Assembly (NCBI GenBank): GCA_965223855.1
Contig: CBDCXM010000009.1
Location: 1,472,001 to 1,536,000 of the forward strand
Direction: 5' to 3'
From: Candidatus Multivoradales bacterium
GTDB taxonomy: Bacteria; Acidobacteriota; Thermoanaerobaculia; Multivoradales; JAHEKO01
DNA length: 64,000 bases
This document shows, one piece after another, positions 11,204 through 34,359 of the stretch. The number at the start of each line of letters is the position of its first letter. Positions within the stretch are counted from its first letter, which is position 1. The position numbers and the translations under genes are program-made. A model generated the notes under the pieces. That model searched no databases. It had not been told where the DNA came from and worked only from the letters and a program-made list of their open reading frames with translations.

Positions 11204-12235
11204 CTAGGGGACGGTGTTGGACCAGGATGTGGTGTCGCCGCTCTCGAAGCCGTCCTCGAAGACGAGGTTGCTGGCGTTCAGGATCTCACTCCTGATTTCT
11301 CCGTTGGGGAAGGCCGCAGAGTGAATGTTGACGTAGAGCTCACCGCCGAAGAGGTCGTCGATCAGGTCCGTGAGATCGACCGCCGGCACGAAGATCGGAC
11401 TCGTCGGGTCACCGAGGTCCCTCACGATCGGCCCGTTCATCCCCGGTGCCCCTCTGTGGATGTGTGCCCCCGTCGGATTGGCCACGTCGTGATCGATCTC
11501 GACCCAGAAGATGAGACCGCCGGGCACGTTCGGCCCGAGCCGAACCGTGCCGTGCGCCGCAGTATTCACCGGCGGCACCTCCTGACTGCCGTCCGCCATG
11601 CCGCCGTGGGGGGAGACCTGAAGCCCGGTTCGCAGAGCTCTCAGCGCCGGCGCGCCGTTGCGGCAGTCCTCGTCCGGATTGTCCGGTGGATCGCCCTTCC
11701 AGCACGGGTTGATGGCCGTGCCCGCGCTCTCGTCGGTGCCGAGGAACTGCCCCGGGGTCTGACTCCCGTCGAGGATCGTGCAGGCCGATGTGATCTGGAC
11801 GGCGTCCAGGCCGACCGAGAAGCGCCCCGAAGCCTGCAGGACCGTCGTCACCCATCTGCGGGAGGCTGGGAAGTTCGGGACGTTCTGGACGACGTCCTGC
11901 GTCGGGCCGGCCACGATCGCGTTCGGCTTCATCGGCCCGGCACCGATGAGCGCTCGACGAACCTGGGCGGTGATCGGCATCGTCGAAGCGCCGGTCGTCT
12001 CGGTCGCCTCGATCTGCACGGCGTTGATGAAGTAGTTGCCGCCGTCGAGACAGACCGGCGGCACGACGATCTCCGAGCAGTACTCGACGACGGAGCCGGG
12101 CTGCGCACCCAGACCGTTCTCGTTTGTGCCGTCGAACGGCATGAGGGTGCATGGATCCTGAGCCGCCGCGGGACCGGCCAGGGTGGCCAGCAGCGCAAGG
12201 GTCGGCGACCAGTGGATGCGGGAGTCGTGCGTCAT
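11204..12235 (-). CDS. Secreted CHRD-domain protein with C-terminal DGFESG tail
   Basis: Signal peptide (AAA-Q); CHRD motifs GSQEVPP, AHIHRG, GELYVNIHS..FPNGEIR; ends VFEDGFESGDTTSWSNTVP. Confidence 0.85.
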   Translation of the reverse strand: MTHDSRIHWSPTLALLATLAGPAAAQDPCTLMPFDGTNENGLGAQPGSVVEYCSEIVVPPVCLDGGNYFINAVQIEATETTGASTMPITAQVRRALIGAGPMKPNAIVAGPTQDVVQNVPNFPASRRWVTTVLQASGRFSVGLDAVQITSACTILDGSQTPGQFLGTDESAGTAINPCWKGDPPDNPDEDCRNGAPALRALRTGLQVSPHGGMADGSQEVPPVNTAAHGTVRLGPNVPGGLIFWVEIDHDVANPTGAHIHRGAPGMNGPIVRDLGDPTSPIFVPAVDLTDLIDDLFGGELYVNIHSAAFPNGEIRSEILNASNLVFEDGFESGDTTSWSNTVP

Positions 12236-12388
12236 GGGACTCGCTCCTGATGGGCTTCTTTGGGATCGAGCCCTGATCGTACCAAGTGCTCGATGGACTG
12301 GCGGTGCCTCGGTGGGCGCAGCCCGTTGCAGGGGAGTGCGGGCAGGCACTCCAACGCCGCTCATCCACCGGCTGCGGAGGCCCGTGGG

Positions 12389-14404
12389 TCAGCTCTGGCC
12401 GTCGTCGACCATCGGCTCGAGTCCCACGCGATCGCCTCCAGTGCGCAGGCTCACCACGAGCCATCGCTCGTCGGCCTCGCCGGCGCGGAAGGGCACTGCG
12501 GCCGAGCCGACGATCTCGAGACCATGGCCCTCGACCCATGCTTCGGCACCCCTGCGGCCGCCGGTGAAGGCCTCGGCATGGAGGACGAGGGTGCCAAAGC
12601 CGCGCGCCCGGAGTTCGGCCGGCTTCGCCGTCGTCTCGATCAGCACCACCTTGCGGCTGCCGTAGGGGCGCCACAGTGAAGCGCGGGCCTCTCGCGCAAC
12701 TCCCATGACAGCGACTTCGCGCTCCGCAGGGTCGAGGAAGGCTCGCACCGGCGCCAGCGCATCGCGACGGCTGCGGTGTGCCTGGTAGACGCGGCGGGCG
12801 CGTTCGACCGCAGGCGATGTCGGCAGGCGATCGAGGACCGGCTCGACCGGCAGCAGCGGTCGCGCCGGGTGGACGAAAAGCACGGGCAGAATGGACAGAG
12901 CGCACAGCGCGGCCGCGGCCCGCCACCAGCGGGCGCGAATCAGGCGCCGATGGCCGGCCGGCAGTAGCAGGAAGGCGACTCCCAGCGGGTAGTAGGGAGC
13001 CAGCAGGCGGGCGGTCGCCTCGCTGCCCATACGTGTCATGTAGACGAGGAGAGCGACGGCGCCACCGGCAAGGATCGCCGCCGTGTGGCTTCGGGACGGC
13101 CTCGGCGCGGGAGAGCTCCCTCGAAAAGGAAGCTGGGAGCGTGGAAGTGGCGGTGCGGAGGCTCTTTCCCGGAACCACACGCCCGAGATCGCCGAGACCA
13201 CCAGCAGTGCCGCCAGTGGCAGCCCCAGTCCGCGATCGCCGGCGCCGGGGAGCTCGGCGACTCGCAGGCTGAACCGGGGGAATTTGCGATCGAGCCAGCT
13301 CACAACCGATGAGGGCAGGGCCTTCTCTACGACCCGGTTCCAGCTCGTCGCCCCGGGAAGCACCGTAGGCGAGAAGTTGGCGTTCGCCAGTTGGAGAGAG
13401 TTGCCGATCACGCCCGCGAGCGGGCTCTCGAGCTGCAGTTCCTTCGCGTTGCCCGGGTCGCCGGAGTAGTGGCCGGTCTCGGCGTGGTTGATCGCCGCAT
13501 TCGGAGCGGCCGAGCAGAGAAGACCGAGAACGAGGCCGACCGCCGTGGCGGGCAACCCGCGCCGCAGAGGGTTCAGGGCCGGCAGCAGCGCGATCGCCAG
13601 TGGCAGCAACAGGGGTACGTTGGAAAGCTTGAAGGAGGTCGCCAAGGCTGCCGCCAGAATCGCGAGCACCACGAAGGCGGGCTGGTGCGTCCGGCGGGCG
13701 CGGAGGGCGAAGACCAGAGACGCGAGCAGGAAGGTCGCGGCGACGGCGTCGTTGCCGACGTCGGCGGCCTGCATCGCGTAGACGACGCCGGTCGGCAGCA
13801 GCCACATCCACGACCAGGCGACCCTGGGACTCACGCCGAGCAGTGTGAAGGCCTGGAAGACGAGGCCGGGCAGCAGGAGGAAGCCGATGAAGTTGAAGAG
13901 GAAGAACAGGCGGTCGGTGCCGAACAGCACGAAGGGCACCGCCAGCATCCACTCGAGGCCGCTGGCGGCGATGTTGATGAGCGGCTCGCGCGCGCCCTCG
14001 ATCCACTGCCACTCTCCCTCCCATGCCCAGTGGAAGAGGCGTGGCAGGCGGTAGGTCAGGGCGTCCGCCTGGGAGGTGGTGTAGAGACTGCCTGCGAGAA
14101 AGGTTGTCGCTGCCACCAGGAAGTAGGCTCGAGGCAGCCAGCGTCGAGACCGCCGGCGCGCTCGCTGCAGACCTCTCCGGCACCGATGCAGGACGCTCCC
14201 GGGTCGCGGCCGACCGACGAACCAGAACCCTGCCGCGAGCAGGGGAAGGGTGGTCAGATAGCCGGTGACCGTCAGCGCCCCGGCCGCGGAAAGGAGCCAG
14301 CCGGCCGTCTGACACCAGGCGGCGAGAACGACCCAGCACGCGGCTTCGGCCCCGGGAAAGCACTGGGGGCGTGCGGCAGCAGCGGTTGGGACCTCGTGAG
14401 CGAT
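12389..14404 (-). CDS. Polytopic membrane protein, probable GT-C fold glycosyltransferase
   Basis: Many TM helices; DALTYRLPR loop, ND and K motifs. Frame stays open 96 codons upstream of the called GTG (14116) with more TM helices, up to ATC at 14404. Confidence 0.65.
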   Translation of the reverse strand: MAHEVPTAAAARPQCFPGAEAACWVVLAAWCQTAGWLLSAAGALTVTGYLTTLPLLAAGFWFVGRPRPGSVLHRCRRGLQRARRRSRRWLPRAYFLVAATTFLAGSLYTTSQADALTYRLPRLFHWAWEGEWQWIEGAREPLINIAASGLEWMLAVPFVLFGTDRLFFLFNFIGFLLLPGLVFQAFTLLGVSPRVAWSWMWLLPTGVVYAMQAADVGNDAVAATFLLASLVFALRARRTHQPAFVVLAILAAALATSFKLSNVPLLLPLAIALLPALNPLRRGLPATAVGLVLGLLCSAAPNAAINHAETGHYSGDPGNAKELQLESPLAGVIGNSLQLANANFSPTVLPGATSWNRVVEKALPSSVVSWLDRKFPRFSLRVAELPGAGDRGLGLPLAALLVVSAISGVWFRERASAPPLPRSQLPFRGSSPAPRPSRSHTAAILAGGAVALLVYMTRMGSEATARLLAPYYPLGVAFLLLPAGHRRLIRARWWRAAAALCALSILPVLFVHPARPLLPVEPVLDRLPTSPAVERARRVYQAHRSRRDALAPVRAFLDPAEREVAVMGVAREARASLWRPYGSRKVVLIETTAKPAELRARGFGTLVLHAEAFTGGRRGAEAWVEGHGLEIVGSAAVPFRAGEADERWLVVSLRTGGDRVGLEPMVDDGQS

Positions 14405-14506
14405 GGAGCGAGTCTAGCCCGCCTACTTCGGGGGTCGTGCCGGCTTCAGTCGGCCCGGTGCAACCGAAACGCATGCGCGAGCGGACTGAAGTTGTAGGAG
14501 GTCCTG

Positions 14507-14899
14507 ATGCACAGATTCGCTCTCGCTACTCTCGTGTTCGTCTCTGCCCTTGCCGCGCTACCGGTCGAAGGTCAGGAGCCGTCCCCGCCGTCGACGGAAG
14601 CTCTCGCCGGCACCTGGACGGTCGACCTGCGCCCCACCCCGGACTCCGAGCCCTACTTTCAGGAGTTCACGCTCGAGTGGGGCGACGAGGGTCCGGTCGG
14701 CACGTTCTACGGCACGTCGATCGAGGAGGTCCGCACCAACACCGCGTGGGGGGTGATCTGGATCGCCTTCGTCACCCGCGACGGATCGGGGGCGTACCAC
14801 ACGACGGCGAAGCTCGTTGGCGATCGCCTGGAGGGGACGACCCACTCCCTCGGCCGCGGCTTCCTGTCGCCCTGGACGGCTGTTCGTTCGATCCCCTGA
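14507..14899 (+). CDS. Small secreted beta-barrel-like hypothetical protein
   Basis: AGGAGG SD; signal peptide; LAGTW motif. Confidence 0.75.
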   Translation: MHRFALATLVFVSALAALPVEGQEPSPPSTEALAGTWTVDLRPTPDSEPYFQEFTLEWGDEGPVGTFYGTSIEEVRTNTAWGVIWIAFVTRDGSGAYHTTAKLVGDRLEGTTHSLGRGFLSPWTAVRSIP

Positions 14900-14968
14900 G
14901 TGGAGATCTCTCCGCCTGATCGAACGCGGTCGATGGATCTCAGCTTCAGCGGTGGGCCGACGACTCTC

Positions 14969-16741
14969 TCAGGGGGGGCGCGCCACCCGGAATCCGTTGC
15001 CGTCGAACCGCTCGCTCGGGTCCATCCCGAAGCGGTACGGCGTGCCGGAGCCGCGTGGTGCGTTGCCCCAGCCGCCACCTCGCAGAGTGCGTCTCCCGCC
15101 TTCGTCGATGACGGGATCGACGGCGCCCCCGGGATAGCGGGCGTAGGCGTCTTCGAGGAAGGAGTCTCGGCACCATTCCCAGGCGTTGCCGAAGAGGTCG
15201 TGGAAGCCCCAGGCGTTGGGCCGGAACGAACCCACCGGCGAGCTGACGACGAAGCCGTCGTCCCATGAGAAGGCGTCCCAGTCCATCGCCGGCACGGTCG
15301 CCTTCGCCGCCTCGTTGAAGCCGTTGCCCCACCCCCGTCCGGCGTCGGGATCCTCCCCCCATGGATAGCGGGTCTTCGTCCCGGCGCGGGCCGCGTACTC
15401 CCACTCCGCCTCGGTCGGCAGACGAAAGCCGAAGTGGCTGGCGAAGGCGGCAGCGTCCTCCCAGGAGACGTCGACCGCGGGCATGGTCTCCGCGTCCAAA
15501 GTCAGATCTTCGGCGCGGTAGAAGGTCCCGCTCGCATGGTCGGGGCGGAAGCGGCGCATCTGCTCGTTGGTGACTTCATACCGGCCGAGATAGAACGCCC
15601 GGGTCAACTGAACGCGATGCCGGGGACGTTCGTTGGCGCGGTCGAAATGGTCTCCGGCGCCGGCCCCCCGCGCATAGTCTCCCGGTGCCACGAGCAGCAA
15701 TTCGACACCCGAGGTGGCGTGTTCGATCCGCCACGGCAGGCCGGTGGCGAGGAGCGCCCGGCGTTCAGACTCGGAGGCGATCACACCGGGGTCGGGCTCC
15801 CATTCGAGCACGTGTGCCCAGTCGGGCGCCTCGAGTCGGGCGGTCAGATACTTGCCGCGAACGAGCGTTCGTTCCTCTCCGTCTTCGAGCGACACGCTGA
15901 CGATCGCCGGCATGCGCGGCGCCTGCTCCGCGAAATCTGTGCGGGTGAAAGTGACCGCTCTGTCGTCCGGCGAGACGTGAGGGTCGAGCACGGCGTAGCC
16001 GTTGCCCGCGGCCAACGTCCGCTCCCCGCCGGTGGCGAGATCGTGGAGCACGAGCGAGAACACACCCTCGGTGACCCGGACGAACACGAGCCGGCTGCCG
16101 TCGCTCGACCAGTCCGGGTGGAACTCGTCGGACTCCGGAGTGCGGGTGACCTGCGTCCGCTCGCCGCTGATCGGGTGGATCGTCCAGATGTCTCCCGCCT
16201 CGTCGTCGCCCGACCGCCCGACGAAGGCGACCTCGCTGCCGTCCGGCGACCAGCGCGGGCTCGTTTCCTGAAAGCCGGTGGTCGAGGTCAGCGGCTCGAT
16301 GGCGCCTGACTCGGGGTCCATCAGCATCAGGTCGCGGGCGTCCGGCCGGTCGACGTGGAAGACGAGACGACTGCCGTCTGGCGAGTAATCAGGATCGCCG
16401 CCCGCCATCTCCCGGCTCGACAGTGCCTGCAGATCGGTCCCGTCTGCCGCGACTCGCATCAGTAGCGGACTGCCGTCGATGTTGGCGGTGAAAACGAGGT
16501 GCGAGCCGTCCGGAGACCACTCCGGGCGATAGTCGCGATGACGTCGAACCACCAGCGGACGTGAGTTCGATCCGTCAGGGTCGGCGAGATAGATGTGCTC
16601 GGGACCGCCGATGAAGCTGAAGGCGATGCGGGTTCCGTCCGGGGACCACGCGGCAGCGTCGGTCGAGCCGGCGACGAACCAGCCGGATACCGCCAGAAGA
16701 CTGGTGGCCGTGAGGAGGTTCCAGCGGGCAGGGGTGCGCAT
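14969..16741 (-). CDS. TolB-like beta-propeller (PD40 repeats) fused to a formylglycine-generating enzyme (SUMF1/FGE-sulfatase) domain
   Basis: Repeated P.WSPDG; RLPTEAEWEYAAR, PNAWGFHDLFGNAWEW, RGGGW, GFRVAR. Confidence 0.9.
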   Translation of the reverse strand: MRTPARWNLLTATSLLAVSGWFVAGSTDAAAWSPDGTRIAFSFIGGPEHIYLADPDGSNSRPLVVRRHRDYRPEWSPDGSHLVFTANIDGSPLLMRVAADGTDLQALSSREMAGGDPDYSPDGSRLVFHVDRPDARDLMLMDPESGAIEPLTSTTGFQETSPRWSPDGSEVAFVGRSGDDEAGDIWTIHPISGERTQVTRTPESDEFHPDWSSDGSRLVFVRVTEGVFSLVLHDLATGGERTLAAGNGYAVLDPHVSPDDRAVTFTRTDFAEQAPRMPAIVSVSLEDGEERTLVRGKYLTARLEAPDWAHVLEWEPDPGVIASESERRALLATGLPWRIEHATSGVELLLVAPGDYARGAGAGDHFDRANERPRHRVQLTRAFYLGRYEVTNEQMRRFRPDHASGTFYRAEDLTLDAETMPAVDVSWEDAAAFASHFGFRLPTEAEWEYAARAGTKTRYPWGEDPDAGRGWGNGFNEAAKATVPAMDWDAFSWDDGFVVSSPVGSFRPNAWGFHDLFGNAWEWCRDSFLEDAYARYPGGAVDPVIDEGGRRTLRGGGWGNAPRGSGTPYRFGMDPSERFDGNGFRVARPP

Positions 16742-16907
16742 CCGTGGAGTCTAGGTGGAGTGCTCGGCTCGGTCGGACCTTGCGCAGCGAGAGTGCCCGA
16801 GGATGCAGGGAGCTGCAGACCCGGGCCGGGTCGGGACCACGCAGGAGGGCGCCTCCCGGTGGTCGGGGCGGCTACAATCGAGCGACTGATCCCCTGGAGG
16901 AAGAACG

Positions 16908-18155
16908 ATGGAGTGCACCCTGTCGATCCGGCCGGCTCGTGCCGTGGCCGTGGTTCTGATCGTCCTGACGAGCTCCGGCTGCGCCATCTGTAGCCGGCCT
17001 CCGTCCTCGCCCGTATCGCCGGCAGCCGACGAAGCGGTCGCGTCGCCTGAGCGGTCGGACTGCCGGTTCCTCTTCGACGCCGGCAGCAGCGGCAGCCGGC
17101 TCTACCTCTACGAGCACACGGATGCCGGCTGGGTGGAGCATCGCGGCAACGGCGATCTTCCCGCGCTGGCCGATCCGGTGCGCGAGATCCGGGGCATGAC
17201 GTGGGACGACATCGATCGCGTGGTCGCCGAGATCGTCGGCGCGCTCCCGGCGATGGTCGAAGACGGGCCGCTCGACGACGGCGAGCCGGCCTGGACGGGC
17301 TTCGACTGGCGGACGCACTGCAACGTGCTTTCGGCGGGCATCTACGCCACCGCGGGTATGCGGATCGCCGAGCAGACGCACCGTGCCCGAGCGGCCGAGT
17401 TGTGGCCGCTGCTCGAGCGCGGACTGGCGGCGACGCTCGGGGACGGGGTCGCGGTGAGCGCGCGGACTCTGAGCGGCTTCGAGGAGGGGCTCTTCACTTG
17501 GCTCGCGCTCCGGGAGACGGCGGGCTCGAACGACTTCGGGATCGCCGAGATGGGTGGCGCCTCGACCCAGGTCGCCTACCCGTGCCCCCAGTGCGCCGAG
17601 GACGCCGAGGACGTCCGCACCGTGATCGTCGATGGCGAGCCGCTGCGATTGTTCAGCTACTCGTTCCTGGGGCTCGGCGTCGACGAGGCTTCGAAGAGCC
17701 TCGGCTTCCCGATGTCGTGCCGCTACGGGATCGGTGAGCTCAACCCGGGGTGGCAGGAGGAGCATTGCGCCTCGCGAATCGACTTCAGCGGCGCGAGCGG
17801 CGGCATCTACGACCCCTACAACTTCGGCGACGGCAGATACGGCATCGACACCGACCTTCCGACCGCCGACGCGACGGTGTCGAAGTGGTACCTCAACGAC
17901 GTCTTCTCCTACATGAGCGCCGACGACCTCGACCGCTGCTGCCGCACCAGCGGCGAGTGCTACCAGGCGGAGACCGCCTGCTTCCGGGCGGTCTACCTGC
18001 GCAAGTACCTCGCGGCGCTCGGCCTCGAGGACGGCACGCCGACCCGGGAGCGGTGGACGAAGGGCGCCAACCTCTGTCTGGCGGAGGACTGTCTCTCGGC
18101 GGCGAAACCGGCTCCGATCTGCCGTTGGGCGGAGGAGGGGTGCCTGGGAGAGTAG
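16908..18155 (+). CDS. GDA1/CD39 family nucleoside triphosphate diphosphohydrolase (apyrase), probable lipoprotein
   Basis: Apyrase conserved regions: DAGSSGSR, YATAGMR, EEG, EMGGASTQV, WTKG; SSGC lipobox-like; GGAGG SD. Confidence 0.85.
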   Translation: MECTLSIRPARAVAVVLIVLTSSGCAICSRPPSSPVSPAADEAVASPERSDCRFLFDAGSSGSRLYLYEHTDAGWVEHRGNGDLPALADPVREIRGMTWDDIDRVVAEIVGALPAMVEDGPLDDGEPAWTGFDWRTHCNVLSAGIYATAGMRIAEQTHRARAAELWPLLERGLAATLGDGVAVSARTLSGFEEGLFTWLALRETAGSNDFGIAEMGGASTQVAYPCPQCAEDAEDVRTVIVDGEPLRLFSYSFLGLGVDEASKSLGFPMSCRYGIGELNPGWQEEHCASRIDFSGASGGIYDPYNFGDGRYGIDTDLPTADATVSKWYLNDVFSYMSADDLDRCCRTSGECYQAETACFRAVYLRKYLAALGLEDGTPTRERWTKGANLCLAEDCLSAAKPAPICRWAEEGCLGE

Positions 18156-18214
18156 GCCGTTCCTGGCCCGCACGGCGCGGAGAATCCGTTGCATTGGAGG
18201 AAGGGAGACAAAGA

Positions 18215-19657: not shown

Positions 19658-19662
19658 GTCCA

Positions 19663-20127: not shown

Positions 20128-20296
20128 GGTCGAGTCTACGAACACCTCGAGAGACGGTTTCACCGGCTGTCCGAAGCCGAAGCTTGGAGTGAGACCCTCC
20201 TACCCGGAAGGGTGGAGCCCCTACTCCCTGAGGCTCTAGACTGCGGGCACAACTGATCCGAGACAGGGCACGGCCGCAGGTGGCCGCGTTGCCCCA

Positions 20297-21994: not shown

Positions 21995-22005
21995 GGGAGA
22001 TCGTC

Positions 22006-23109
22006 ATGGCGAAGAAGCGACAGCGCACACGCCAGCCAAGTTGGAAGCGGATGGGCCTGACGCCGCGCATCCGCAAGTCGGTGGCGGAGTTCGTAGAGAA
22101 GCTGCCGGTCGATGAACCGGCGGAAGCGGCGCGTTCGGCCCGCCGGCAGCTCACCGGCAAGCAGGCGAAGAAGATCGTCCAGAGCGCCCTCGAGCGCTTC
22201 TTCGAGAAGCAGGAGCTGGCGCCCTACCAGGCCGAGTTGATCAAGATGCACCGGCATCTGGAGGCGCGCGGTCGCAAGCTCATCGTCCTTTTCGACGGCA
22301 GAGACGCCTCGGGGAAGGGAGGGACGATCCGGCGGGTGGTGCGCTATCTGAACGAGAAGCAGTATCGCGTCGTTGCGCTCGGCAAGCCGACCGAGGAGCA
22401 GAAGACCGAGCTCCACATGAAGCGCTACATCGAGTGCCTTCCGCACGCGGGCGAGATCGTGCTCTTTGATCGCAGTTGGTACAACCGCGCCATGATCGAG
22501 CCGGTGATGGGCTTCTGCACCGAGCCGCAGTATCGCGAGTTCATGAAGCGGGTCGTCGGCTACGAGGAGCGGATGCTGGCCGATCGCACCACGACCCTCA
22601 TCAAGCTCTACTTCTCGGTGTCGAAAGAGGAGCAGAAGCGGCGATTCGACCGCCGTCGCGACGACCCGCTTCGACAGTGGAAGCTCAGCGAGGTCGACCT
22701 CCAGGCGCAGGCGCTGTGGGACGAGTTCACGGAACGCAAGTACCACCTGCTACGCAAGACCCACACCGACAAGACGCCCTGGTACGTGATTCGCTCGGAC
22801 GACAAGCGGATTGCCCGCCGCGAGACCATCAAGCTGATCCTGAAACTCAACTCCTATCGCGGCCGCAGTCGCTCCCTGAACTTCGACCTCGACCCGGAAG
22901 TGGTGCTCACGGGGGACGAGGAGCTGCGGCTCATGCAGCGTCAGCGCCGCAGGCTTGGCCGTTTTGCGTGCGTTGATCCGGAGCGGACGCTAGCCCGCCT
23001 GCTCTACGGGATCGTCGAGCTCCAGTTCGAGGTGTCGCCGGTCTCGAACCCGTCGAGGAAGATCGTTGCACCGAAGCAGACCGAGTTGACGCAGGTGGAG
23101 AGCGAGTAG
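22006..23109 (+). CDS. ppk2: Polyphosphate kinase 2 (last ~45 aa may be artefactual)
   Basis: GRDASGKGG Walker A, FDRSWYNR, WKLS..D; 11 nt downstream of the Na/Pi transporter. Confidence 0.92.
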   Translation: MAKKRQRTRQPSWKRMGLTPRIRKSVAEFVEKLPVDEPAEAARSARRQLTGKQAKKIVQSALERFFEKQELAPYQAELIKMHRHLEARGRKLIVLFDGRDASGKGGTIRRVVRYLNEKQYRVVALGKPTEEQKTELHMKRYIECLPHAGEIVLFDRSWYNRAMIEPVMGFCTEPQYREFMKRVVGYEERMLADRTTTLIKLYFSVSKEEQKRRFDRRRDDPLRQWKLSEVDLQAQALWDEFTERKYHLLRKTHTDKTPWYVIRSDDKRIARRETIKLILKLNSYRGRSRSLNFDLDPEVVLTGDEELRLMQRQRRRLGRFACVDPERTLARLLYGIVELQFEVSPVSNPSRKIVAPKQTELTQVESE

Positions 23110-23858
23110 AAGTAGGTCTGGCCCGGCGCCAGGACGCGGCGCTGCTGAAAGCCGGCCGTGAAGTCACCGGGTCCGAAGGGGGTGCCGGTGCCGGTGAAGT
23201 CGTCGAGCGCGTTGTCGTTGAGGGCGTCGCGCACGGCCGGCCACGCCTCGACCCGATAGCCGATCCCCGGCGACGCACTGAGCCACGCCTCGGAGGTCTC
23301 GCTGGCGATCACCGTGTCCGGAGAGAACCTGATGGCGGAGTCGCCGCCGGCGCTTCCGTCGACGTCCATGTCCGCGTACGGAAAGACGGTGAGGTCGAGA
23401 TTCGAGCCGGAGATATTCGTCACGGTAAGGGCGGTGCCCAGAAACCCGCCCGAGCCGCTGACGCTGACGAAGAAGAACATCTGAGCGTCGAAGAGGCCGC
23501 GACCGTCGACGTCCGACCAGGTCAGAGTCGCCGTGTCCCCGCTGTAGCTCTCGCTGTCGGGCGGCGGCATGATCGTCTCCGCCGTGTCCCCGGCGACGCG
23601 GTACCAGAACCAGCGCGCGAACTCGTGGTCGGTGCCGATCGGCACCTCGAAGTCGGTGACGATGCCTTCCGGACCGAAGCCAGGCTGAACCCTCCAGAGG
23701 TTGGTCCCGTCGGTGATCTCCCCTCCTAAGACGACGCCCTGGGTGACCTCGCTTCGGGGGACATCACGGCGGGCGGAGAGCTCCTTGTCCTTCCCCCGGA
23801 CCGGAGCGGATACCAGCAGGATGCCGACCGTCATCGCCGTGCAGGACAGCTTCTTCAT
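23004..23858 (-). CDS. Secreted hypothetical protein with C-terminal DGFETG tail
   Basis: GGGAGG SD; signal peptide MKKLS...VRG; beta-rich body; ends IFLDGFETGDTSNWSSTIP. Confidence 0.85.
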   Translation of the reverse strand: MKKLSCTAMTVGILLVSAPVRGKDKELSARRDVPRSEVTQGVVLGGEITDGTNLWRVQPGFGPEGIVTDFEVPIGTDHEFARWFWYRVAGDTAETIMPPPDSESYSGDTATLTWSDVDGRGLFDAQMFFFVSVSGSGGFLGTALTVTNISGSNLDLTVFPYADMDVDGSAGGDSAIRFSPDTVIASETSEAWLSASPGIGYRVEAWPAVRDALNDNALDDFTGTGTPFGPGDFTAGFQQRRVLAPGQTYFYSLSTCVNSVCFGATIFLDGFETGDTSNWSSTIP

Positions 23859-24840: not shown

Positions 24841-24850
24841 GCATCAGATG

Positions 24851-26236: not shown

Positions 26237-26354
26237 GCACAGCTCCTTTCGACCGAGGTGCTCTCGGTGTGTCGGCTTCCACTCCTAGCAACGCCGCTGC
26301 ACCGGAAGCGTTCCCGTCGAGGTCGCTGGCGGGCCTGTCCGGCGAAGGCTGTCT

Positions 26355-26719
26355 CTATGGGTCTTCGGGCGGTTCCCAGAGTTCGATCTTGTTGCCCTCG
26401 GGGTCGTAGACCCAGGCGAACCTGCCGTACTCCTCGTCCTGTCGCTCATTGTCGATCGAGACGCCGGCCGCGGCGAGCCGCTCGAGGAGTCCGTCGAGAT
26501 CCCGCACTCGAAGGTTGACCATGAACTGCTGCTCGTCGCGGCCGAAGTAGTCGGTGTTGCGAGCGAACGGCGCGAAGACGGTGGCGCCCGCCTCTTGAGT
26601 CCACACGCCGCCCTGGCTGCCCTGGGCGATGCCGAAGTGCTCCTCGTACCAGCCGCAAGGCCGCTCGGATCGTCCGCGCGGAAGAACAGCCCTCCGATGC
26701 CGAGCACGTGAGAGGTCAT
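26355..26719 (-). pseudogene. VOC/glyoxalase family protein with one frameshift near 26652 (probably a sequencing error)
   Basis: MTSHVLGIGGLFFRADDP in one frame; WYEEHFG...YGRFAWVYDPEGNKIELWEP in another; 365 nt total, one base short. Confidence 0.85.
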
Positions 26720-26738
26720 GGGGGAGTTATAGCAGGGT

Positions 26739-27644: not shown

Positions 27645-27662
27645 CTTCCGGAGAAATCCCGG

Positions 27663-29933
27663 CTAGCGACCGCTCGTGGAAGCGAAGCTCGACATCGGCC
27701 TCGGGGCTGTTCGTTGCGGCAGGGCACGACCGGCCGGCACCACCCGGACCGGTGTGCGGACCATCTCGGCCAGCACTTCACCGGGCCGCGGATCGTCGTC
27801 GGAGAGAGCGGTCTGGCCGCCGAGAACGTAGACGTGACCGTCGTCGAACCAGGTGACCGCTCCGATGAGCGGGCGGGGCAGCGCGACGTCGAGCACCCGC
27901 CACCGGTCGGTCTCGATGTCGTAGAGCTGGATCGCCGCCGTCGTGGCACTGCCATGTCCTGCGCCGCCCAGGAGCAGCAGGTGGCGCTCGTCGATCGCGA
28001 CGATCTGATGGCCGACGTGATGGACGGCGATCGGCAGGTCGGCGAGCCGGCTCCAGCGGTCGCTCTCGAAGTCGTAGCGGTGGGCGTAGGGGTGGGCGAT
28101 GTAGGCACCGGGCGCAGCGTCCTCGTCCTCCTCGGCCGCCGTCGCCGCATGGCCGTGCTCACCGCCCACCAGGTAGAGCGAGAGCCCGAGTGGGCCGCGG
28201 AGAGTGACGGAGCCGAAATGATCGCTGGCGACAGGCCTGTCGCGGTGGCGACGCCAGCCGCCGGATCCGCCCGACTCGAGGATCCAGTGCTCGCGGCACG
28301 GCGTCTTGCGGTCCTCGAGGTCGCCGGGGAAGAGGTGGAGTTGCCCACGCCAGTAGGCGAGCGCTCCGCAGTAGCGCGGCACCGGCAGGTCCGGAAGCCG
28401 CGACCACGTGTCGGTGGTGGCGGAGAGCATCCAGCACGATCGCAGTGCACGAGCGTAGCGGGGGCCGCGCTGTCCGGCCACCAGGTAGACGTTGCCCGAG
28501 TCGTCGTGGCAGATCCCGCCGTGAGAGCGGGCGATCTCGGCATCGGTCCCATCCGGGAAGGGCGGTCCCGGGCTCCAGTCGAGGTTGTCCAGGTCGAGCC
28601 ATACGGGCGGCCCGGTGTTGACGTCCCAATAGGTCTGGCCGAAGCCGCCGAAGAGCAGCAACCGTCGGCCCACCCGGCAGGCGTGAGCCTCGATGTGAGG
28701 TGCCGGGGAGCCCTTGCCGGTCCGTTCCCACTTGCCGATCTCGACTACCGGTCGCTTCCTCACGCGCTCGAGGACCTCGAGCCACTCCCTCGCCTGGCGG
28801 CGTTCGGTGAAGCTGCGACGGACCCGCCGCAGCCCCGCCTCGCCGAACGACCGCGCCAGCTCGGGGTGGCTCCGCAGATAGTCCATCTGGTCGACCACGG
28901 TAGCGAGGTCCTCCGTCCCGTGAAGCCAGCCGGTCACGCGATGGAGGACGATCTCGACCGTGCCGCCGAGGTCGGTGCCTAGGACCGGCAGGCCGTAGGC
29001 CATCGCCTCGATCGACACCCGGCCGAACGCTTCACCCGGCGGGAGGGAGTGCACCACGAGAAGGTCGGCCGCCGCATAGTGATCACCGACTTCAGCCGTC
29101 GGTGGCTCGAAGTGAACCAGCTCCCGCCGACGCTCCGGCCACGCTTCGAGGTCGGAGCGGATCGTCGCCGCCTCGCCGACGTCGTGGGCGCCGACGAGCA
29201 CCAGATGGGGAGGGGAGGGCTCGTCCTCTCCCAGACGCTCGAGCCATCGTCCGAAAGCCCGGGTGACGAGGCGACTCCCCTTGTGCGGCAGCACGCCCAC
29301 GACCAGCACCACGAAGGCGTCGCGGGGGATGCCGAGTCGGGTACGGGTGCGGCGACGCGGCGCTCCGGCGCGAACCCGAGGCTCGAGGCTCGACTCCTGA
29401 GCTCGGGCATCGACCGCCGCGCTGAGGAAGTCGTCGGTGAGACCGGGGTGGATCACCTCCCATGCGGAGTCGAGGGGACGGTCGTGGGGCGTCCACGCTT
29501 CGCGGCAGACGTGCGAATCGAAGACCGCTTGCCCGGCCCGCAGCACCTTAGCCCGAGCCTCCGGCGAGACGTACGGTGCTCCCGCTTCGTGCAGCCAGAA
29601 GATCGTCCGGGCGGCCAGCCGGCGGGCCAGCGCATCGCCGGGCGCGATCAACTCCTCGAACCAGGGACGGGGCAACGAGGTGTTGACCACGATCACGTCG
29701 TAGCCCTCGTCGATCGCCCGCCGGTCCGACGGATCGGGTAGCTCCAGTCGCTCGATCCCGTGTCGGGCGAAGAACGCCCCGAAATGGGGATGCTCGTCGA
29801 TCCCCTCGTAGGCGGCGAGCGACACCCGCCATCCTTCGCGGCGCCACAGAGCCGCGACCTCGGCACACAGCAGTGGCGCACCGGAGAGAGACAGATCGTG
29901 GCTGATCAGCAGGACGCGCAGCGGATCGGGCAT
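27663..29933 (-). CDS. GT4 (GT-B) glycosyltransferase fused to a Kelch-repeat beta-propeller
   Basis: SHDLSLSGAP, EAFGRVSIEAMAYGLPV, GGTVEIV; C-terminal Kelch repeats (LLFGG, YLVGG, YVLGG with W spacing). Confidence 0.85.
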   Translation of the reverse strand: MPDPLRVLLISHDLSLSGAPLLCAEVAALWRREGWRVSLAAYEGIDEHPHFGAFFARHGIERLELPDPSDRRAIDEGYDVIVVNTSLPRPWFEELIAPGDALARRLAARTIFWLHEAGAPYVSPEARAKVLRAGQAVFDSHVCREAWTPHDRPLDSAWEVIHPGLTDDFLSAAVDARAQESSLEPRVRAGAPRRRTRTRLGIPRDAFVVLVVGVLPHKGSRLVTRAFGRWLERLGEDEPSPPHLVLVGAHDVGEAATIRSDLEAWPERRRELVHFEPPTAEVGDHYAAADLLVVHSLPPGEAFGRVSIEAMAYGLPVLGTDLGGTVEIVLHRVTGWLHGTEDLATVVDQMDYLRSHPELARSFGEAGLRRVRRSFTERRQAREWLEVLERVRKRPVVEIGKWERTGKGSPAPHIEAHACRVGRRLLLFGGFGQTYWDVNTGPPVWLDLDNLDWSPGPPFPDGTDAEIARSHGGICHDDSGNVYLVAGQRGPRYARALRSCWMLSATTDTWSRLPDLPVPRYCGALAYWRGQLHLFPGDLEDRKTPCREHWILESGGSGGWRRHRDRPVASDHFGSVTLRGPLGLSLYLVGGEHGHAATAAEEDEDAAPGAYIAHPYAHRYDFESDRWSRLADLPIAVHHVGHQIVAIDERHLLLLGGAGHGSATTAAIQLYDIETDRWRVLDVALPRPLIGAVTWFDDGHVYVLGGQTALSDDDPRPGEVLAEMVRTPVRVVPAGRALPQRTAPRPMSSFASTSGR

Positions 29934-30160
29934 TCGCGGCCCATTCTTGCGCAGCGCGAGCCGCCCGGCATCGACTGGGTGTGGATCGGCACTGCCGGTC
30001 CGGCCTTTCGAGCTCCACAGCCCACGCTGGATCCCCGGGATGCCCCCCAACGCGGGGAAGTCGAGCGACGTCGGGTCTCGCGGTGCGACGAGGCGGGCGA
30101 ACCGTCGTATCCTCTGCTCCGTCCTGAGGTGCCACGATGGACGCCCGCGGAGATCTCATC

Positions 30161-31333
30161 ATGCCTGCGAAGCCGTCACCAGTCAGTGCCAGACCGCCCA
30201 GTGCCAGACCGCCCAGTGACAGACTGGCCAGTGACAGACTGGCCAGTGACAGACTGGCCAGTGCCAGCGCCGTGAGCACACTGGTGCTCGTTTCCTTTCT
30301 CGCGGTCACGGGAGTTTCCGCGCAGGGCAATGCCTATGGCATCAACGTCCACGCGCCGGCGGGCTCCCAGCTCAACTTCCTCTTCGACAAGGTCGAGGCC
30401 GCCGGCATCGGCTGGGTGCGGATCGACCTGGTCTGGGCGAACGTCGAGGCACAGGAGGACGTCTACAACTGGGCGCTCTACGACGCGCTGGTCGCAGCAG
30501 CCCAGGCTCGCGGTCTCAAGATCCTGGCGATCGTCGCCTACACACCCGGCTGGGCGACCGACGGTCCGCCCGTCGCCGGAGTGCCGCGCGACGTCACCGA
30601 CTGGGAGGAGTTCTGCTTCCTGGCGGCGGATCGCTACGCCGACACGATCCATGCCTGGGAGATCTGGAACGAGCCCAACCTCGACCACTTCTGGGACGGC
30701 ACCCGCAGTGAGTACATCAACCTGATCCTGCGGCCCGGCACCGACGCCATCCGCGCGGCCGATCCCGACGCCCAGGTCGGCGGCCCCGGCCTGGCGCACC
30801 TCGTCTCCGGCGACCAGGACTGGTATCGCTGGTTGCTGGAGATCCTGCAGCAGGCCGGGGACAGGTTCGACTTCGCCACCCATCACGCCTACGACAACGA
30901 CGGTCGAGTGGACGTCACCGAGAAGCTGAACGAGGACACCCTGTTCGGCGACGACCCCGATCTGTGGGACCTCGTGCCGCCGTCGACTCGTGAGGTGCTG
31001 ATCGAGGCCGGTTGGTTTCCGCGCCCGGTCTGGCTGACCGAGACCGGCTGGGCGACCGACCAGGTCACCGAGGCACAGCAGGCTGTCTACTACGGCGACT
31101 TCCTGTCCCGGTGGTTCGTCGGCGACCCCGGCCACGACTGGATCGACAGGATCTTCTTCTACGTGATCCAGGACTTCACGACTCCCGGGATCCCGCAGTG
31201 GGGGGTGCTGCGCACCGACGGCAGCGAGAAGCCCGCCTACGTCGTCTACCGCGACTTCATCGGCGGCGACACGATCTTCCAGGACGGCTTCGAGTCCGGC
31301 AACACGGCGGCCTGGTCGGCGACGGTGCCTTAG
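30161..31333 (+). CDS. Secreted clan GH-A glycoside hydrolase (GH5/GH39-like) with C-terminal DGFESG tail
   Basis: WEIWNEPN acid/base, VWLTETGW nucleophile; signal peptide; ends IFQDGFESGNTAAWSATVP. Confidence 0.88.
   Translation: MPAKPSPVSARPPSARPPSDRLASDRLASDRLASASAVSTLVLVSFLAVTGVSAQGNAYGINVHAPAGSQLNFLFDKVEAAGIGWVRIDLVWANVEAQEDVYNWALYDALVAAAQARGLKILAIVAYTPGWATDGPPVAGVPRDVTDWEEFCFLAADRYADTIHAWEIWNEPNLDHFWDGTRSEYINLILRPGTDAIRAADPDAQVGGPGLAHLVSGDQDWYRWLLEILQQAGDRFDFATHHAYDNDGRVDVTEKLNEDTLFGDDPDLWDLVPPSTREVLIEAGWFPRPVWLTETGWATDQVTEAQQAVYYGDFLSRWFVGDPGHDWIDRIFFYVIQDFTTPGIPQWGVLRTDGSEKPAYVVYRDFIGGDTIFQDGFESGNTAAWSATVP
30184..30267 (+). repeat. 15-bp tandem repeat, about 5.6 copies
   Basis: CAGTGCCAGACCGCC x2, CAGTGACAGACTGGC x3, then partial CAGTGCCAG; encodes SARPP/SDRLA. 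Confidence 0.95.
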
Positions 31334-31383
31334 CGGCGGCTGCCTTTCTCACCCTGAATCCCTGGGATGCCATCAGGCGAACG

Positions 31384-32991
31384 TCAGCCTGCGAGCCACT
31401 CCCGGCAGCGCGACTGCTGGGAGTCCTCACCCTCGGCGGGGTAGCCGTCGCACGCTGAGCTCACCAGTTGTCGCACGCTCTCGACGACGGCGTCGTGTTC
31501 GCCGTCCTCGTTCCACGCCCCGAAGGCGCGCTCGAGCTGCCCGAGCCGCAGGCTGTTGCCCAGGGCGAAGGCGTCGCCGTGGGTCAGGAGCTCTCCCAAT
31601 ACCTCGCGCGCCGCCGCCTCGATCGTCTCCGGGCGCTCGGGAGTGAGCTCCATGAGTTGCCGCAGATAGTTGGATCCCCACCGGAATCGGGTGTAGCGGC
31701 CGTTGGCCCCCTCCCACGCCTGGCGGTAGAGGTCGATCGCTTCGTCGTTCTCGCCGGCCTCCTTCTTGAGGCTCGCCAGCCAGGACATGAAGTAGTACGG
31801 GGCTTCGGTGCCGGCGAGGTTGTCGGCGAGGAGTTGCTGTGCCTCCTCCGGGAGGCCCGCATCGTCGAGCACCGCTGCCGCCGTGTTGAGGAGCGTCTGC
31901 ATCTCGCCGCCGTCCTTGGACGCACCGACGGCCCAGGCGACCCGTTCCCGCACGTGGTCGACCAGCGCCGCGGGCAGCGGTGAGTCCTCTTCCTCCGCTG
32001 CCAGACGAGCGAGGTCCATCCGGGTGGAGACGGCGGTCAGGCGGTCGTCGGTCGACAGTTCTTCGTCGGCCTCGAGGCGCTGCGCCGCCTGCTCCCAGGC
32101 CTCGATCAACGCCGTCCGCTCGGCCCCCGGTTCCGGCGTCAGCAGCGAGACGACGCTCGTCGCCCGATAGGTGACGTCGAAGACGTTCTCGCGGCACAGG
32201 TCCGGGTCTGCGAGCATCGCCAGCAGCGCCGGCGTCACCTCCTCGCGCGCGGCATCGTCGAGCACCGGGTCGTCTCCCTCTTCGGCGCCGCGGGCCAGAC
32301 GCGCCGCCTCGCCGAGGTAGAGACCGAGGAACCGTGCCCGGGGACCCGCCAGCTCGGCGGGCGTCTCACGCCACAACCGCGCGAAGGTGCCGAGGCGCGC
32401 CTCTTCTTCGAGCGCGATCTGACTGTCCTGACCCCAGGAGTAGTAGGCCAGCAGGTCGAGGTCGCCCGGGTCGGAAGCAGCGGGGCCGGCGGCGAGTACG
32501 CTCTCCAGGATCTCACTCACCGGGCGGTCGAGCCGCAGCGCGCGCTCCATCACCGCGGCGTAGCGCGACACCGGCACGTCGGAGGGCATCCGCAGCAGCT
32601 CCTCCCCCTCGGCGCTGTAGACCATCACGGTGGGGTAGCCCTGGACGTCGAGCTGCTCGCCCAGCACCTGGGCACCCTCCTCGTCGCCGTCGAGATAGAC
32701 GGCGATGAAGTCGCGCGAGCGCTCCACGAAGTCGGGCTGGGAGAAGATCTTGTCCTTGAGGTAGTGGCAAGGCGGGCACCACTCCGCGCCCCAGTAAAGG
32801 AAGAGCGGCTTGCCGACCTCCTTCGCCAGGGCGAAGGCCTCGTCCGCGCTGCCCTCGAACCAGGCGACGCCGGGAGCTTCGACCGCGGGTTCGGTAGCCG
32901 CCGACTCCGACGGCTGCGATCGCCCGCAGCCGTCGAGGGCGAGGGCGAGAGTGGAGACGACGAAAGCGACCTGCCAGGTGGATCTGCTCAT
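31384..32991 (-). CDS. Thioredoxin-fold lipoprotein with helical (TPR-like) C-terminus
   Basis: WGAEWCPPC, GYPT cis-Pro loop; lipobox-like LDGC; GAGG SD. Confidence 0.85.
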   Translation of the reverse strand: MSRSTWQVAFVVSTLALALDGCGRSQPSESAATEPAVEAPGVAWFEGSADEAFALAKEVGKPLFLYWGAEWCPPCHYLKDKIFSQPDFVERSRDFIAVYLDGDEEGAQVLGEQLDVQGYPTVMVYSAEGEELLRMPSDVPVSRYAAVMERALRLDRPVSEILESVLAAGPAASDPGDLDLLAYYSWGQDSQIALEEEARLGTFARLWRETPAELAGPRARFLGLYLGEAARLARGAEEGDDPVLDDAAREEVTPALLAMLADPDLCRENVFDVTYRATSVVSLLTPEPGAERTALIEAWEQAAQRLEADEELSTDDRLTAVSTRMDLARLAAEEEDSPLPAALVDHVRERVAWAVGASKDGGEMQTLLNTAAAVLDDAGLPEEAQQLLADNLAGTEAPYYFMSWLASLKKEAGENDEAIDLYRQAWEGANGRYTRFRWGSNYLRQLMELTPERPETIEAAAREVLGELLTHGDAFALGNSLRLGQLERAFGAWNEDGEHDAVVESVRQLVSSACDGYPAEGEDSQQSRCREWLAG

Positions 32992-33165
32992 GGCGTACCT
33001 CTTGTCGGGAGTGCCGGCGGGTCGGCCCGGCCGGTCCTGCGATTCTAGTGGTCTCTCCAACAGCTACGGATTCGCTGCTCGAGAGTTCCGCGGAGGCTCG
33101 CTGCCACGAGGAGTCCCAGGCCGGTCGCGGGGGCGGTGATAGCTTCCCCTGGTGAGGTCGCAACG

Positions 33166-34359
33166 GTGAGGTGGAGGATCGCAGCGAAGTGGTCCGGGGC
33201 CAGGAGGAACGCGACGGTGACCCTGATCGCGGCGCTCGCGCTCGGGGCGGGCCAAGTCTCCGCCCAGACGGCTTGCTCCGACATCGAGGGCCTCAAGTTC
33301 GTCGAGGTCGATCTGGCCGACGGTATCGACCCGGTCGCCGCGCCCGGCGGCAGCACCGCAGGGCCGCAGGGGACCTGGACGGTCCAGTGCCCGGATGGGG
33401 CCTCGCCCTGTCCGTTCCCGTCCGGCTCACTCTTCCAGCCGCTCTACAACGGTGAGCATCTGGTCCAGTACACCCCGTCGACCGCTGCGACCGGCGGCTG
33501 CAGCTACAGCCTCCACGTCGGGCCACCGGGTCTTCAGGTGGAGCTGGTCTGGGAGTGGGACTCCGCGCTCGGCCCCGACACGGTCGATCTCGACCTTCAC
33601 CTTCATCGGCCGTCGAGCACCGCGCCCTGGGGCGGCAACAGCGGCACTCCGGACGACTGTGCCTGGGACAACTGCAAGGCGGCGAGCTTCGACCCCGGCG
33701 CACCGAACCCGATCGCTCCCGACTGGTTCGACGGCACCGCGCCGCCCGAGCCGGTCGACTGGTACGAGTCGCCGGTGTTCGAGGAGAACTCCTGCTACTT
33801 CATGCCGCAGGACGGCACGGTTTGGGCGTCCTACGGCCTCGGCTGCCACAACCCTCGGCTATCGCTCGACAACATCTCCTGCGACCCGGTCGAAACCGAC
33901 CCGGCGGACATCGAGTACTGTCATCCCGAGACCACCAACATCGACTACATGCCGCACCACCGCTGGACCCGCATCGGCGTGCACTACTTCAGTGCCGCAG
34001 GCCAGAGCTACGACGTGCATCCGAAGGTTCGGATCTACTGCGGCCGCCGGCTCTTGCTGACCCTCGGTGACGCGACGGCCGGCCCGCCCGGATACTCGCA
34101 GGAGGTGACCTTCACCCCGGCCGACGGAGGCGACATGTTCTGGCTCGTCGCCGACGTCGTCTTCCCGGCGGACCCGGGACCGGGAGAGCCCGCCTGCGAG
34201 ATCGCCCCGCTCTACGCCGACGCCAACCGTGCGCCCTACTACAGCACCGTCACCGAGGTGCAGCAGACCCTCGGACCTCCGTACCCGGGTGCGCAGCCGG
34301 TCTTCAGCGACGGCTTCGAGTCCGGGGACCTGTCGGCGTGGTCGACCGTCTTGCCCTGA
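33166..34359 (+). CDS. Secreted Cys-rich protein (DLDLH motif, YfaP/DUF2135-like) with C-terminal DGFESG tail
   Basis: Signal peptide (VSA-Q); VDLDLHL, NPRLSLDN, PETTNI; ends VFSDGFESGDLSAWSTVLP; start could be 33136 or 33166. Confidence 0.78.
   Translation: MRWRIAAKWSGARRNATVTLIAALALGAGQVSAQTACSDIEGLKFVEVDLADGIDPVAAPGGSTAGPQGTWTVQCPDGASPCPFPSGSLFQPLYNGEHLVQYTPSTAATGGCSYSLHVGPPGLQVELVWEWDSALGPDTVDLDLHLHRPSSTAPWGGNSGTPDDCAWDNCKAASFDPGAPNPIAPDWFDGTAPPEPVDWYESPVFEENSCYFMPQDGTVWASYGLGCHNPRLSLDNISCDPVETDPADIEYCHPETTNIDYMPHHRWTRIGVHYFSAAGQSYDVHPKVRIYCGRRLLLTLGDATAGPPGYSQEVTFTPADGGDMFWLVADVVFPADPGPGEPACEIAPLYADANRAPYYSTVTEVQQTLGPPYPGAQPVFSDGFESGDLSAWSTVLP

Follow-up and report, generated by a model that had tools for sequence, protein, structure and literature searches.

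What does a 19-residue peptide do when it sits at the very end of several exported proteins whose bodies are unrelated to one another? The question arises from a 64,000-nucleotide stretch of a Candidatus Multivoradales genome (class Thermoanaerobaculia, Acidobacteriota), hereafter the window (G000:C9:1472001-1536000), in which four genes encode such a C-terminal tag. G000 is the genome that holds the window (4.52 Mb in 9 contigs, 68% G+C, 92% complete), other G numbers denote the genomes compared with it, and L numbers denote the loci examined. A first-pass annotation had left two options for the tag: a signal for a dedicated outer-membrane translocon or transpeptidase, or a strand that docks enzymes onto a scaffold. 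We favor the second, because the tag shares homology with the strands that open a jelly-roll domain, and a secreted copy of that domain lacking those strands is co-distributed with it; no outer-membrane translocon or peptidase was identified. Four independent kinds of sequence evidence, namely export signals, homology, boundaries, and co-distribution, back a split-domain arrangement in which the tag would complete the truncated jelly-roll in trans, and we give this a probability of about 0.5. The tag's homology to the start of the domain and the proposed partner are both new findings.

The tag and the proteins that carry it

Translation bore out the four tails of the window, each followed immediately by a stop codon: VFEDGFESGDTTSWSNTVP at 11204..11263 (minus strand), at the C-terminus of a CHRD protein; IFLDGFETGDTSNWSSTIP at 23004..23063 (minus strand); IFQDGFESGNTAAWSATVP at 31274..31333 (plus strand); and VFSDGFESGDLSAWSTVLP at 34300..34359 (plus strand). 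They score 39.8, 39.5, 42.2, and 39.3 bits, respectively, against a hidden Markov model (HMM) of 77 tails. The bodies of the four proteins are non-homologous, as first described (a CHRD protein, a GH39/GH5-like protein, and two proteins without a Pfam family), and each of them, read from a plausible start, begins with a signal-peptide-like stretch, which agrees with the Sec-type export originally read into them. The lack of a transmembrane helix or basic cluster in the tail was confirmed over 78 tails, and no cognate gene or machinery was found within the window, again as the first-pass annotation had said.

These four proteins belong to a much larger set. In G000, about 85 to 90 exported proteins of unrelated families carry the consensus xIFxDGFESGDTSAWSxTVP. 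The pattern F.DGFE.G occurs 85 times in the six-frame open reading frames (ORFs) of the 4.52-Mb genome, with F exactly 18 residues before the stop in 77 cases, and the tail HMM matches 93 ORFs at 14 bits or more (a few of them short fragments), in 85 of which the tag lies no more than 2 residues from the stop. A signal-peptide-like N-terminus was recognized in 85 of the 93 by a crude rule of hydrophobicity and charge. The HMM scan that had been proposed at first pass returned a high count, a C-terminal position, and co-occurrence with signal peptides. Tagged genes are spread across contigs and over both strands, and the tag frequency is far above chance. Pfam searches with 42 of the 93 tagged proteins retrieved S8 and M12 peptidases, sulfatase, GSDH, ThuA, DUF2961, BNR/sortilin and FG-GAP propellers, LamG, DUF11/DUF7933 giants, a MauG-like peroxidase, beta-helices, and others, with no family in 13; the tagged set consists mostly of hydrolases, propellers, and adhesin-like repeats.

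From the four genes of the window the motif had appeared to be strictly C-terminal. These four are part of about 90, and the C-terminal position holds for most of them but not for all: in two G000 proteins the tag immediately follows the signal peptide, and in one further protein it opens an internal jelly-roll. Because it stands at the mature N-terminus of two proteins, the tag is better explained as a docking peptide than as a signal specific to the C-terminus. The two N-terminally tagged proteins are encoded at G000:C9:748660-749562 (plus strand; locus L137:661-1560) and G000:C9:2463250-2464260 (minus strand; locus L134:254-1261); in one of them a Pro-rich linker follows the tag, and the other has a beta-helix body (Pfam Beta_helix, E 2e-6).

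Conservation of the tail sets in abruptly at position -19, and nothing upstream is conserved. Across 78 tails, the relative entropy of each column stays under 0.5 bit upstream of -20 and ranges from 1.1 to 5.6 bits between -19 and -1, and in the G000 consensus IFaDGFESGDTSAWSxTVP the residues D, G, F, E, G, and W are invariant. Selection was said to act on the peptide and not on the DNA, and codon use supports that view. The Ser at -12 is encoded from both codon boxes (AGC 28, TCG 24, TCC 12, AGT 5, TCA 2), third-position identity of the tag codons is 0.62 versus 0.78 at positions 1 and 2, and the 60 nt downstream of the stop codon (TGA in 53 genes, TAG in 25) are unconserved. A DNA repeat or read-through is ruled out by the varied stops, the synonymous codons, and the unconserved downstream DNA.

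The same data bear on the idea that the tails are inert remnants of jelly-roll domains once present at the C-terminus, or else a DNA repeat inserted at gene ends. In other phyla, the domain whose first residues correspond to the tag sits at the same place, after Ig/FN3-type modules, as this idea would have it. We nevertheless regard it as extremely improbable, since six residues are the same in every tail although Ser is drawn from both codon boxes, third positions differ, and the DNA past the stop shows no conservation, and since dozens of independent decays would not all end at one residue.

Tag length differs among lineages. In G033 and G043, 8 of 15 and 3 of 15 sampled tags end at the Trp itself (W+0), and 10 of 15 and 7 of 15 end at W+0 or W+1. 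These short tags (loci L215-L244) have about 14 residues, IFADGFESGDTTAW followed by the stop, versus the 19-residue form of G000, which ends WSxTVP before the stop. Tags ending at or near the Trp imply that the minimal tag has about 14 residues.

Homology to a jelly-roll domain and a truncated secreted copy

When one genome of each GTDB species was scanned for the motif, at least 131 loci were found, and the 80 for which titles were shown are mostly titled Thermoanaerobaculia, Holophagae, or Acidobacteriota. Among the 131 loci listed, the distance from F to the stop is exactly 18 residues in 67, 13 to 30 residues in 39, and more than 30 in 4, and no stop falls within the locus in 21. In 21 of the listed loci, the ORF continues past the motif into a domain of about 200 residues, of which the motif is the first strand, and the motif follows signal peptides, Pro-rich linkers, or FN3/Ig modules. 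These read-on loci come from records titled Chloroflexota classes, Actinomycetota, Fimbriimonas, Vicinamibacteria, a Bathyarchaeota metagenome-assembled genome, and others.

The consensus start of 221 complete domains is ..DLIFADGFESGDLSAWSSAVT..DGGDLSVT..AAL.G.YGL, and their opening segment follows the pattern (I/L)F-x-DGFE-S-GD-x-S-x-W-S-x-x-V. Alignment of the 78 tails to the complete domains with hhalign gave a probability of 97.4% (E 9.7e-12), with tail columns 1-18 on domain columns 15-32 and 72% consensus identity; as a control, these tails aligned to only the truncated proteins gave a probability of 0.4%. At the level of sequence, the tag is homologous to the first ~19 residues, predicted to form a pair of short strands with a Trp loop, of an uncatalogued concanavalin A-like (ConA-like) jelly-roll domain. 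In large proteins of two relatives, complete domains occur in tandem and the motif opens each of them, e.g., WFSDGFESGDLSAWDVTDTGGGALSVQSSAALEGTYGL. Internal copies, which by the first-pass annotation would count against the idea of a tag, do occur in other phyla as the first strand of a complete domain; they alter how the tag is read without undoing it. Many large multidomain relatives (proteins P0010-P0146) end in ...FESRRQTYIGP before the stop, a conserved segment that follows the domain.

The AlphaFold2 model of a complete domain has a predicted local distance difference test score (pLDDT) of 95 and a predicted template modeling score (pTM) of 0.90, and the tag-equivalent residues form its strands 3-5 and 17-20. 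Foldseek and VIA-align placed the model among the ConA-like jelly-rolls, so that the fold is shared with 2zzj, 3zyp, X122, and the PL7/14/18/36 lyases. VIA-align to the PL20 glucuronan lyase 2zzj gave Z 20.9 and a root mean square deviation of 2.4 Å over 195 residues with a model range of 1-207, which means that the aligned part extends to the N-terminal end. Further matches were Cip1 (3zyp; Z 18.8), the CAZy X122 domains (8q28/8q29; Z about 17), and alginate lyases. X122 is reported to be a jelly-roll with a structural Ca site, for which no function was found (PMC10916295).

The check for an existing family model that had been suggested at first pass was negative. Searches of NCBIfam and Pfam with the whole window proteins and with the tails alone gave no match to the tag above cut-off, and no sorting model in either database matches it. 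Whole window proteins searched against NCBIfam (E<=1) found no sorting-signal model, and 26-residue tails searched against NCBIfam (E<=10) matched only NTTRR-F1 (NF033675) at positions 2-22, with E 0.068 and 13.3 bits against a cut-off of 70. The best NTTRR-F1 score in G000 (26.5 bits, also below the cut-off of 70) belongs to a different C-terminal jelly-roll of giant tagged proteins. CBM_4_9 (PF02018) aligns to the motif-led domains of other phyla, with alignments that begin at profile positions 1-4 (E 3e-4 to 0.012), with a best score of 21.5 bits (E 3.3e-4, a domain of another phylum) under a gathering cut-off of 25.9, and it has no match in G000. The tag thus aligns to the first positions of CBM_4_9 and NTTRR-F1, but with scores that fall short of the curated cut-offs (E 3e-4 to 0.07). 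Neither the complete domain nor the truncated protein is covered by a Pfam or NCBIfam family, and a PDB sequence search matched no chain. Within the literature text covered, which excludes subscription journals, neither the motif string DGFESGD nor any work on C-terminal secretion in Thermoanaerobaculia was found.

The giant proteins just mentioned are two DUF11/DUF7933 repeat proteins encoded at G000:C8:534857-537073 (minus strand; L140:13061-15274) and G000:C8:651183-655910 (minus strand; L151:87-4811). Their different, NTTRR-F1-like C-terminal jelly-roll (26.5 and 15.6 bits) starts with NGHFDCDLEGW and is immediately followed by the tag.

The candidate partner of the tag is encoded outside the window, at G000:C9:733685-734308 (minus strand), and has 208 amino acids counted from MRKV. 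It was found, as one gene in G000, when the sequence beyond the motif in 15 motif-led domains of other phyla was searched with phmmer; only two of these queries, both from Chloroflexia, retrieved it. Its signal peptide ends in ...GVAHA, and the cleavage site is followed by GANTLAVT..., the next strand of the domain; in a joint alignment, the motif of the complete domains faces the signal peptides of the small proteins. The 19 small homologues in relatives have a signal peptide, an AxA-type site, and then (N/T)(T/S)LxV, with the motif in none of them. A profile search of 1.84 billion representative proteins gave 3793 matches at E<=1e-3. Among the best 149 of these, which were examined, 40 are stand-alone proteins (<=260 amino acids), and the motif is present in none of the 40; the 109 larger proteins hold 265 domain copies, 173 of which have a motif-like strand no more than 32 residues upstream. 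Judged by these boundaries, the tag and the mature small protein appear to sum to one domain, split in the turn after the second strand, and this picture of an exact split is valid for the genus of G000 and is not a general rule. In the AlphaFold model of the small protein, the signal peptide has a pLDDT below 50 and the mature part 92 to 96, and the predicted strands correspond one to one to the remaining strands of the complete domain.

Co-distribution and possible modes of action

A gene family that is co-distributed with the tag had been proposed as the route to its machinery. Such a family exists in part: the truncated jelly-roll tracks the tags, with exceptions such as G035 and G241. All counts given here are raw counts, taken without a species tree over related genomes that are not independent. 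Among 41 relatives, the DNA pattern FxDGFExGDT gave 72 hits in G000, 8 to 86 in 18 others, 1 to 4 in 7, and none in 15, and a backwards control pattern gave 0 hits in all 41. The truncated small form was verified in 17 of the 19 tag-rich relatives (at least 8 pattern hits), the exceptions being G004 (77% complete) and G035 (97% complete), and a profile search for the partner in G035, G004, G005, G006, and G014 returned nothing. None of the 15 zero-hit relatives has the small form. Thirteen of them gave no match at all, the match in G010 is to a complete domain that has a degenerate motif of its own, and that in G007 lies inside a 601-aa ORF. Only G025 has the small form among the 7 low-hit relatives.

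At the level of the phylum (201 genomes, at least 90% complete), 4 genomes are tag-rich and 193 lack the pattern. The full-length small form (profile 1-208, ORFs of 219 to 243 amino acids) is present only in the 4 tag-rich genomes and in G025, and one tag-free genome has a 262-aa ORF with its own motif immediately upstream. At the level of the class (151 genomes, at least 90% complete), a family match (E<=1e-10) was found in all 19 pattern-positive genomes, and 128 of the 132 pattern-negative genomes have none, a match being present in G331, G357, G241, and G343; all 9 tag-rich genomes of this set have a near-full-length match that starts in the signal-peptide part of the profile. Partner-bearing lineages with few strict hits have divergent tags (38, 18, 14, and 5 hits with a looser pattern), 11 of 12 sampled being C-terminal. 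Two further tag-rich records (113 and 66 looser hits) have small forms, although the first shares coordinates with G036 and is not independent, and small forms are absent from three further records that are tag-poor (2, 1, and 6 hits). Presence and absence alternate inside at least the families f1, f6, f8, and f17.

This tie to the truncated protein bears on whether the tail could act without any protein partner, as an acidic, aromatic, possibly Ca-binding hairpin that binds envelope polysaccharide or lipopolysaccharide or associates with itself. The invariant D, E, D, and W in a unit of 14 to 19 residues would suit such a hairpin, as would the continued conservation of short forms ending at the Trp and the structural Ca site reported for related jelly-rolls (PMC10916295). 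In the complete-domain model, however, the same residues are buried within a 200-residue fold, and a partnerless tail predicts no tie to the truncated protein, yet that tie is strong. We consider a partnerless tail quite unlikely.

If the tag does complete the truncated jelly-roll, events may have run as follows. In this lineage (Thermoanaerobaculia, Acidobacteriota), the opening segment would have been detached from the domain and placed on about 85 to 90 Sec-exported proteins, and the remainder of the domain would have come to be encoded once, as a small secreted protein. Sec would export both cargo and partner, as their sequences indicate, and the tag would then insert into the open sandwich by strand complementation and reconstitute the domain. 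We speculate that the completed lectin/lyase-like module retains the cargo on a glycan of the envelope or matrix or, alternatively, acts as a shared adaptor in a subsequent export step; the only hint of a glycan or export role is that the partner gene often lies among genes for glycosyltransferase family 2 (GT2), sulfatase-family, and polytopic membrane proteins. That this amounts to natural split-protein docking, with one truncated lectin/lyase-like jelly-roll completed by a strand peptide of 14 to 19 residues on ~2% of the proteome, we propose tentatively, at slightly less than even odds.

The principle has precedents. In the donor-strand complementation of chaperone-usher pili and the strand exchange of type V pili, an incomplete Sec-exported beta-sandwich is completed by a strand of another polypeptide. 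The sequence boundaries of tag and partner would fit such a sandwich, and the resemblance is one of mechanism and not of sequence. Pilins have an Ig-like fold, whereas here the fold is a ConA-like jelly-roll; the donated strand comes from the next pilus subunit or the chaperone, whereas here it would sit on ~90 unrelated enzymes; and pilus systems have an usher and a chaperone, whereas here none was identified, no search having been aimed at usher or chaperone genes. Cohesin-dockerin systems likewise use a shared small module to dock many secreted enzymes on one partner. A dockerin, however, is a folded module of ~60 to 70 amino acids with duplicated Ca-binding loops that binds the surface of a complete cohesin, whereas the tag has 14 to 19 residues and would join the fold of its partner. 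No dockerin or cohesin Pfam family was among the reported matches of the 4 window proteins (E<=1) or of 42 further tagged proteins (E<=1e-5). The system proposed here may be likened to both donor-strand complementation and cohesin-dockerin, as a member of neither.

A conventional sorting or secretion signal offers a different account. The tail would be read by an outer-membrane translocon, a periplasmic factor, or a C-terminal peptidase, and the truncated jelly-roll would be functionally unrelated, co-occurring with the tag because both come from a domain family expanded in the same lineages. In LPXTG/sortase, PEP-CTERM and IPTL-CTERM/exosortase, GlyGly-CTERM/rhombosortase, and MYXO-CTERM systems, too, a short conserved tail is found in many copies on diverse Sec exports with a patchy distribution. 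The modular C-terminal placement on a diverse exported set and the patchy, all-or-none distribution are typical of a dedicated system, the length past the Trp varies freely among lineages, as expected of a recognition motif, and G035 has many tags while the truncated protein is undetected there. However, tripartite sorting signals have a transmembrane helix and a basic cluster, whereas the tag ends 5 residues past the Trp with no hydrophobic run or Arg/Lys cluster in the 78 tails; they are also covered by curated NCBIfam models, none of which matches the tag. The C-terminal domain of the type IX secretion system is likewise a beta-structured C-terminal signal that lacks a membrane anchor and is found on hydrolases and adhesins secreted by diderm bacteria, but it is a complete sandwich of ~70 to 100 amino acids, whereas here conservation spans only 19. 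The tag therefore fails the defining features of both tripartite sorting signals and the type IX C-terminal domain.

Candidate machinery for a sorting signal was not found either. Exosortase (PF09721) has 0 matches in G000, which is 92% complete, sortase and rhombosortase not having been searched for, and the SprA family (PF14349) has no match in G000 but none in the control genomes either, which makes that search uninformative. A screen of gene families neighboring tagged genes gave only generic multicopy families, and the one linked membrane protein occurs in just 6 of 41 genomes. A sorting signal would also leave unexplained why the truncated protein starts right after the tag-equivalent segment, why the motif is absent from all 40 stand-alone forms, and why two proteins carry the tag at the N-terminus. 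Taken together, these points make a conventional signal somewhat unlikely.

Several observations weigh against completion of the jelly-roll by the tag. One partner gene per ~90 cargo genes requires very high expression or a transient role (a look-up at the partner locus listed no RNA record), and the truncated protein folds confidently in silico without the tag and may be stable alone. G035 has 38 pattern hits, with 16 of 16 sampled sites C-terminal (F-to-stop distances of 15 to 42 residues), and no partner, the motif has 0 hits in G241 despite a small-form match there, and G025 has a strong partner with only 7 looser motif hits. The relatedness of the genomes makes the co-distribution counts non-independent, and the rows with low counts are partly circular, since a family match includes complete domains that themselves bear the motif. 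A pairing of shorter tags with a longer partner N-terminus is unsupported, because the G033 partner starts at the usual place; a 7-residue N-terminal extension of the G043 partner is a single case.

If the tag does dock by completing the jelly-roll, it would represent a third way of organizing secreted proteins, besides membrane-anchored sorting signals and folded docking modules, in which a domain is cut in two and one half distributed over the secretome. Dozens of unrelated exoenzymes would share one detachable binding module or export adaptor, in a bacterial counterpart of cohesin-dockerin based on strand complementation, and this could explain how hydrolases, peptidases, and adhesins stay near the cell. 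It would also provide the first partner for a tag found on many exported proteins of an uncultured, environmentally common class of Acidobacteriota, and a small natural peptide/protein complementation pair usable as a tool. The orphan motif becomes a testable pair of a peptide and a 185-residue protein, and should the two not bind, their co-distribution would still limit where the actual machinery has to be sought.

Neighborhood of the candidate partner gene and tagged genes of the window

In G000, the partner gene is neighbored by three sulfatase-family genes (PF00884), a GT2 gene, and genes for two polytopic membrane proteins without a family. Sulfatase-family neighbors are also present in G001-G003, G026, G037, G042, and G045, with only the end of the neighbor seen in several of them. 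This setting hints at envelope glycan. Homologues of one of the polytopic membrane proteins, g1577, occur in 6 of 41 relatives, always adjoining the partner gene, and g1577 is ruled out as a core component by this narrow distribution. The three sulfatase-family proteins that flank the partner (G000:C9:727000-742000, L152) end in ...(E/R)ALGYL(N), an ending that recurs in other genomes on proteins encoded beside the partner (L177, L178, L202), and in G019 the ORF adjoining the partner gene ends in ...FGYLQ. The ORF immediately upstream of the partner gene in G042 (L178:226-999, plus strand) ends in a degenerate tag-like tail, ...LLFFDGFETQTEERWSSSTGS before the stop.

The stand-alone partners themselves end in ...D.[YF].S[TF]R before the stop or with an additional TLAP (A1 alignment; P0075-P0154). 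An ESM Atlas look-up, which provides leads only, pointed to unnamed clusters of ~217 to 255 amino acids, with Acidobacteriota and Pseudomonadota as the commonest phyla, and to a PF21340-bearing LamG-like cluster. Of the three feature clusters nearest to the partner, two (238 and 255 amino acids, unnamed) have Pseudomonadota as their commonest phylum. Bacteria other than Acidobacteriota may thus have a truncated protein of this kind, and perhaps a tag like this one as well.

The first tagged gene of the window (11204..12364, minus strand) is an ORF of 386 amino acids encoding an exported protein with a CHRD domain (Pfam PF07452, E 7.6e-18, residues 258-360), and the start that gives it a signal peptide is probably the internal Met of MTHDSRIHWSPTLALLATLAGPAAAQ. 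The second (23004..23858, minus strand) encodes an exported protein of 284 amino acids with the signal-peptide-like N-terminus MKKLSCTAMTVGILLVSAPVRG and no Pfam or NCBIfam family. The third (30137..31333, plus strand) encodes a glycoside hydrolase resembling clan GH-A (Pfam Glyco_hydro_39, E 9.8e-14; Cellulase [GH5], E 7e-9), whose N-terminus has a repetitive region and then a hydrophobic signal segment. Its true start codon is uncertain because the 5' repeats precede the signal segment. Within 30137-30330, the 5' part of the gene, these are short tandem repeats, PPSAR twice and SDRLA three times, and the opposite strand reads as GQSVT repeats. The fourth (33136..34359, plus strand) encodes an exported Cys-rich protein of 407 amino acids with the signal-peptide-like segment ATVTLIAALALGAGQVSAQT and no family in Pfam or NCBIfam.

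Elsewhere in G000, at least 9 proteins of ~300 amino acids recur no more than 3 genes from tagged genes, at nine loci (e.g., C9:525703-526617, C9:996162-997067, and C9:1071006-1071911), and this family may be a mobile element.

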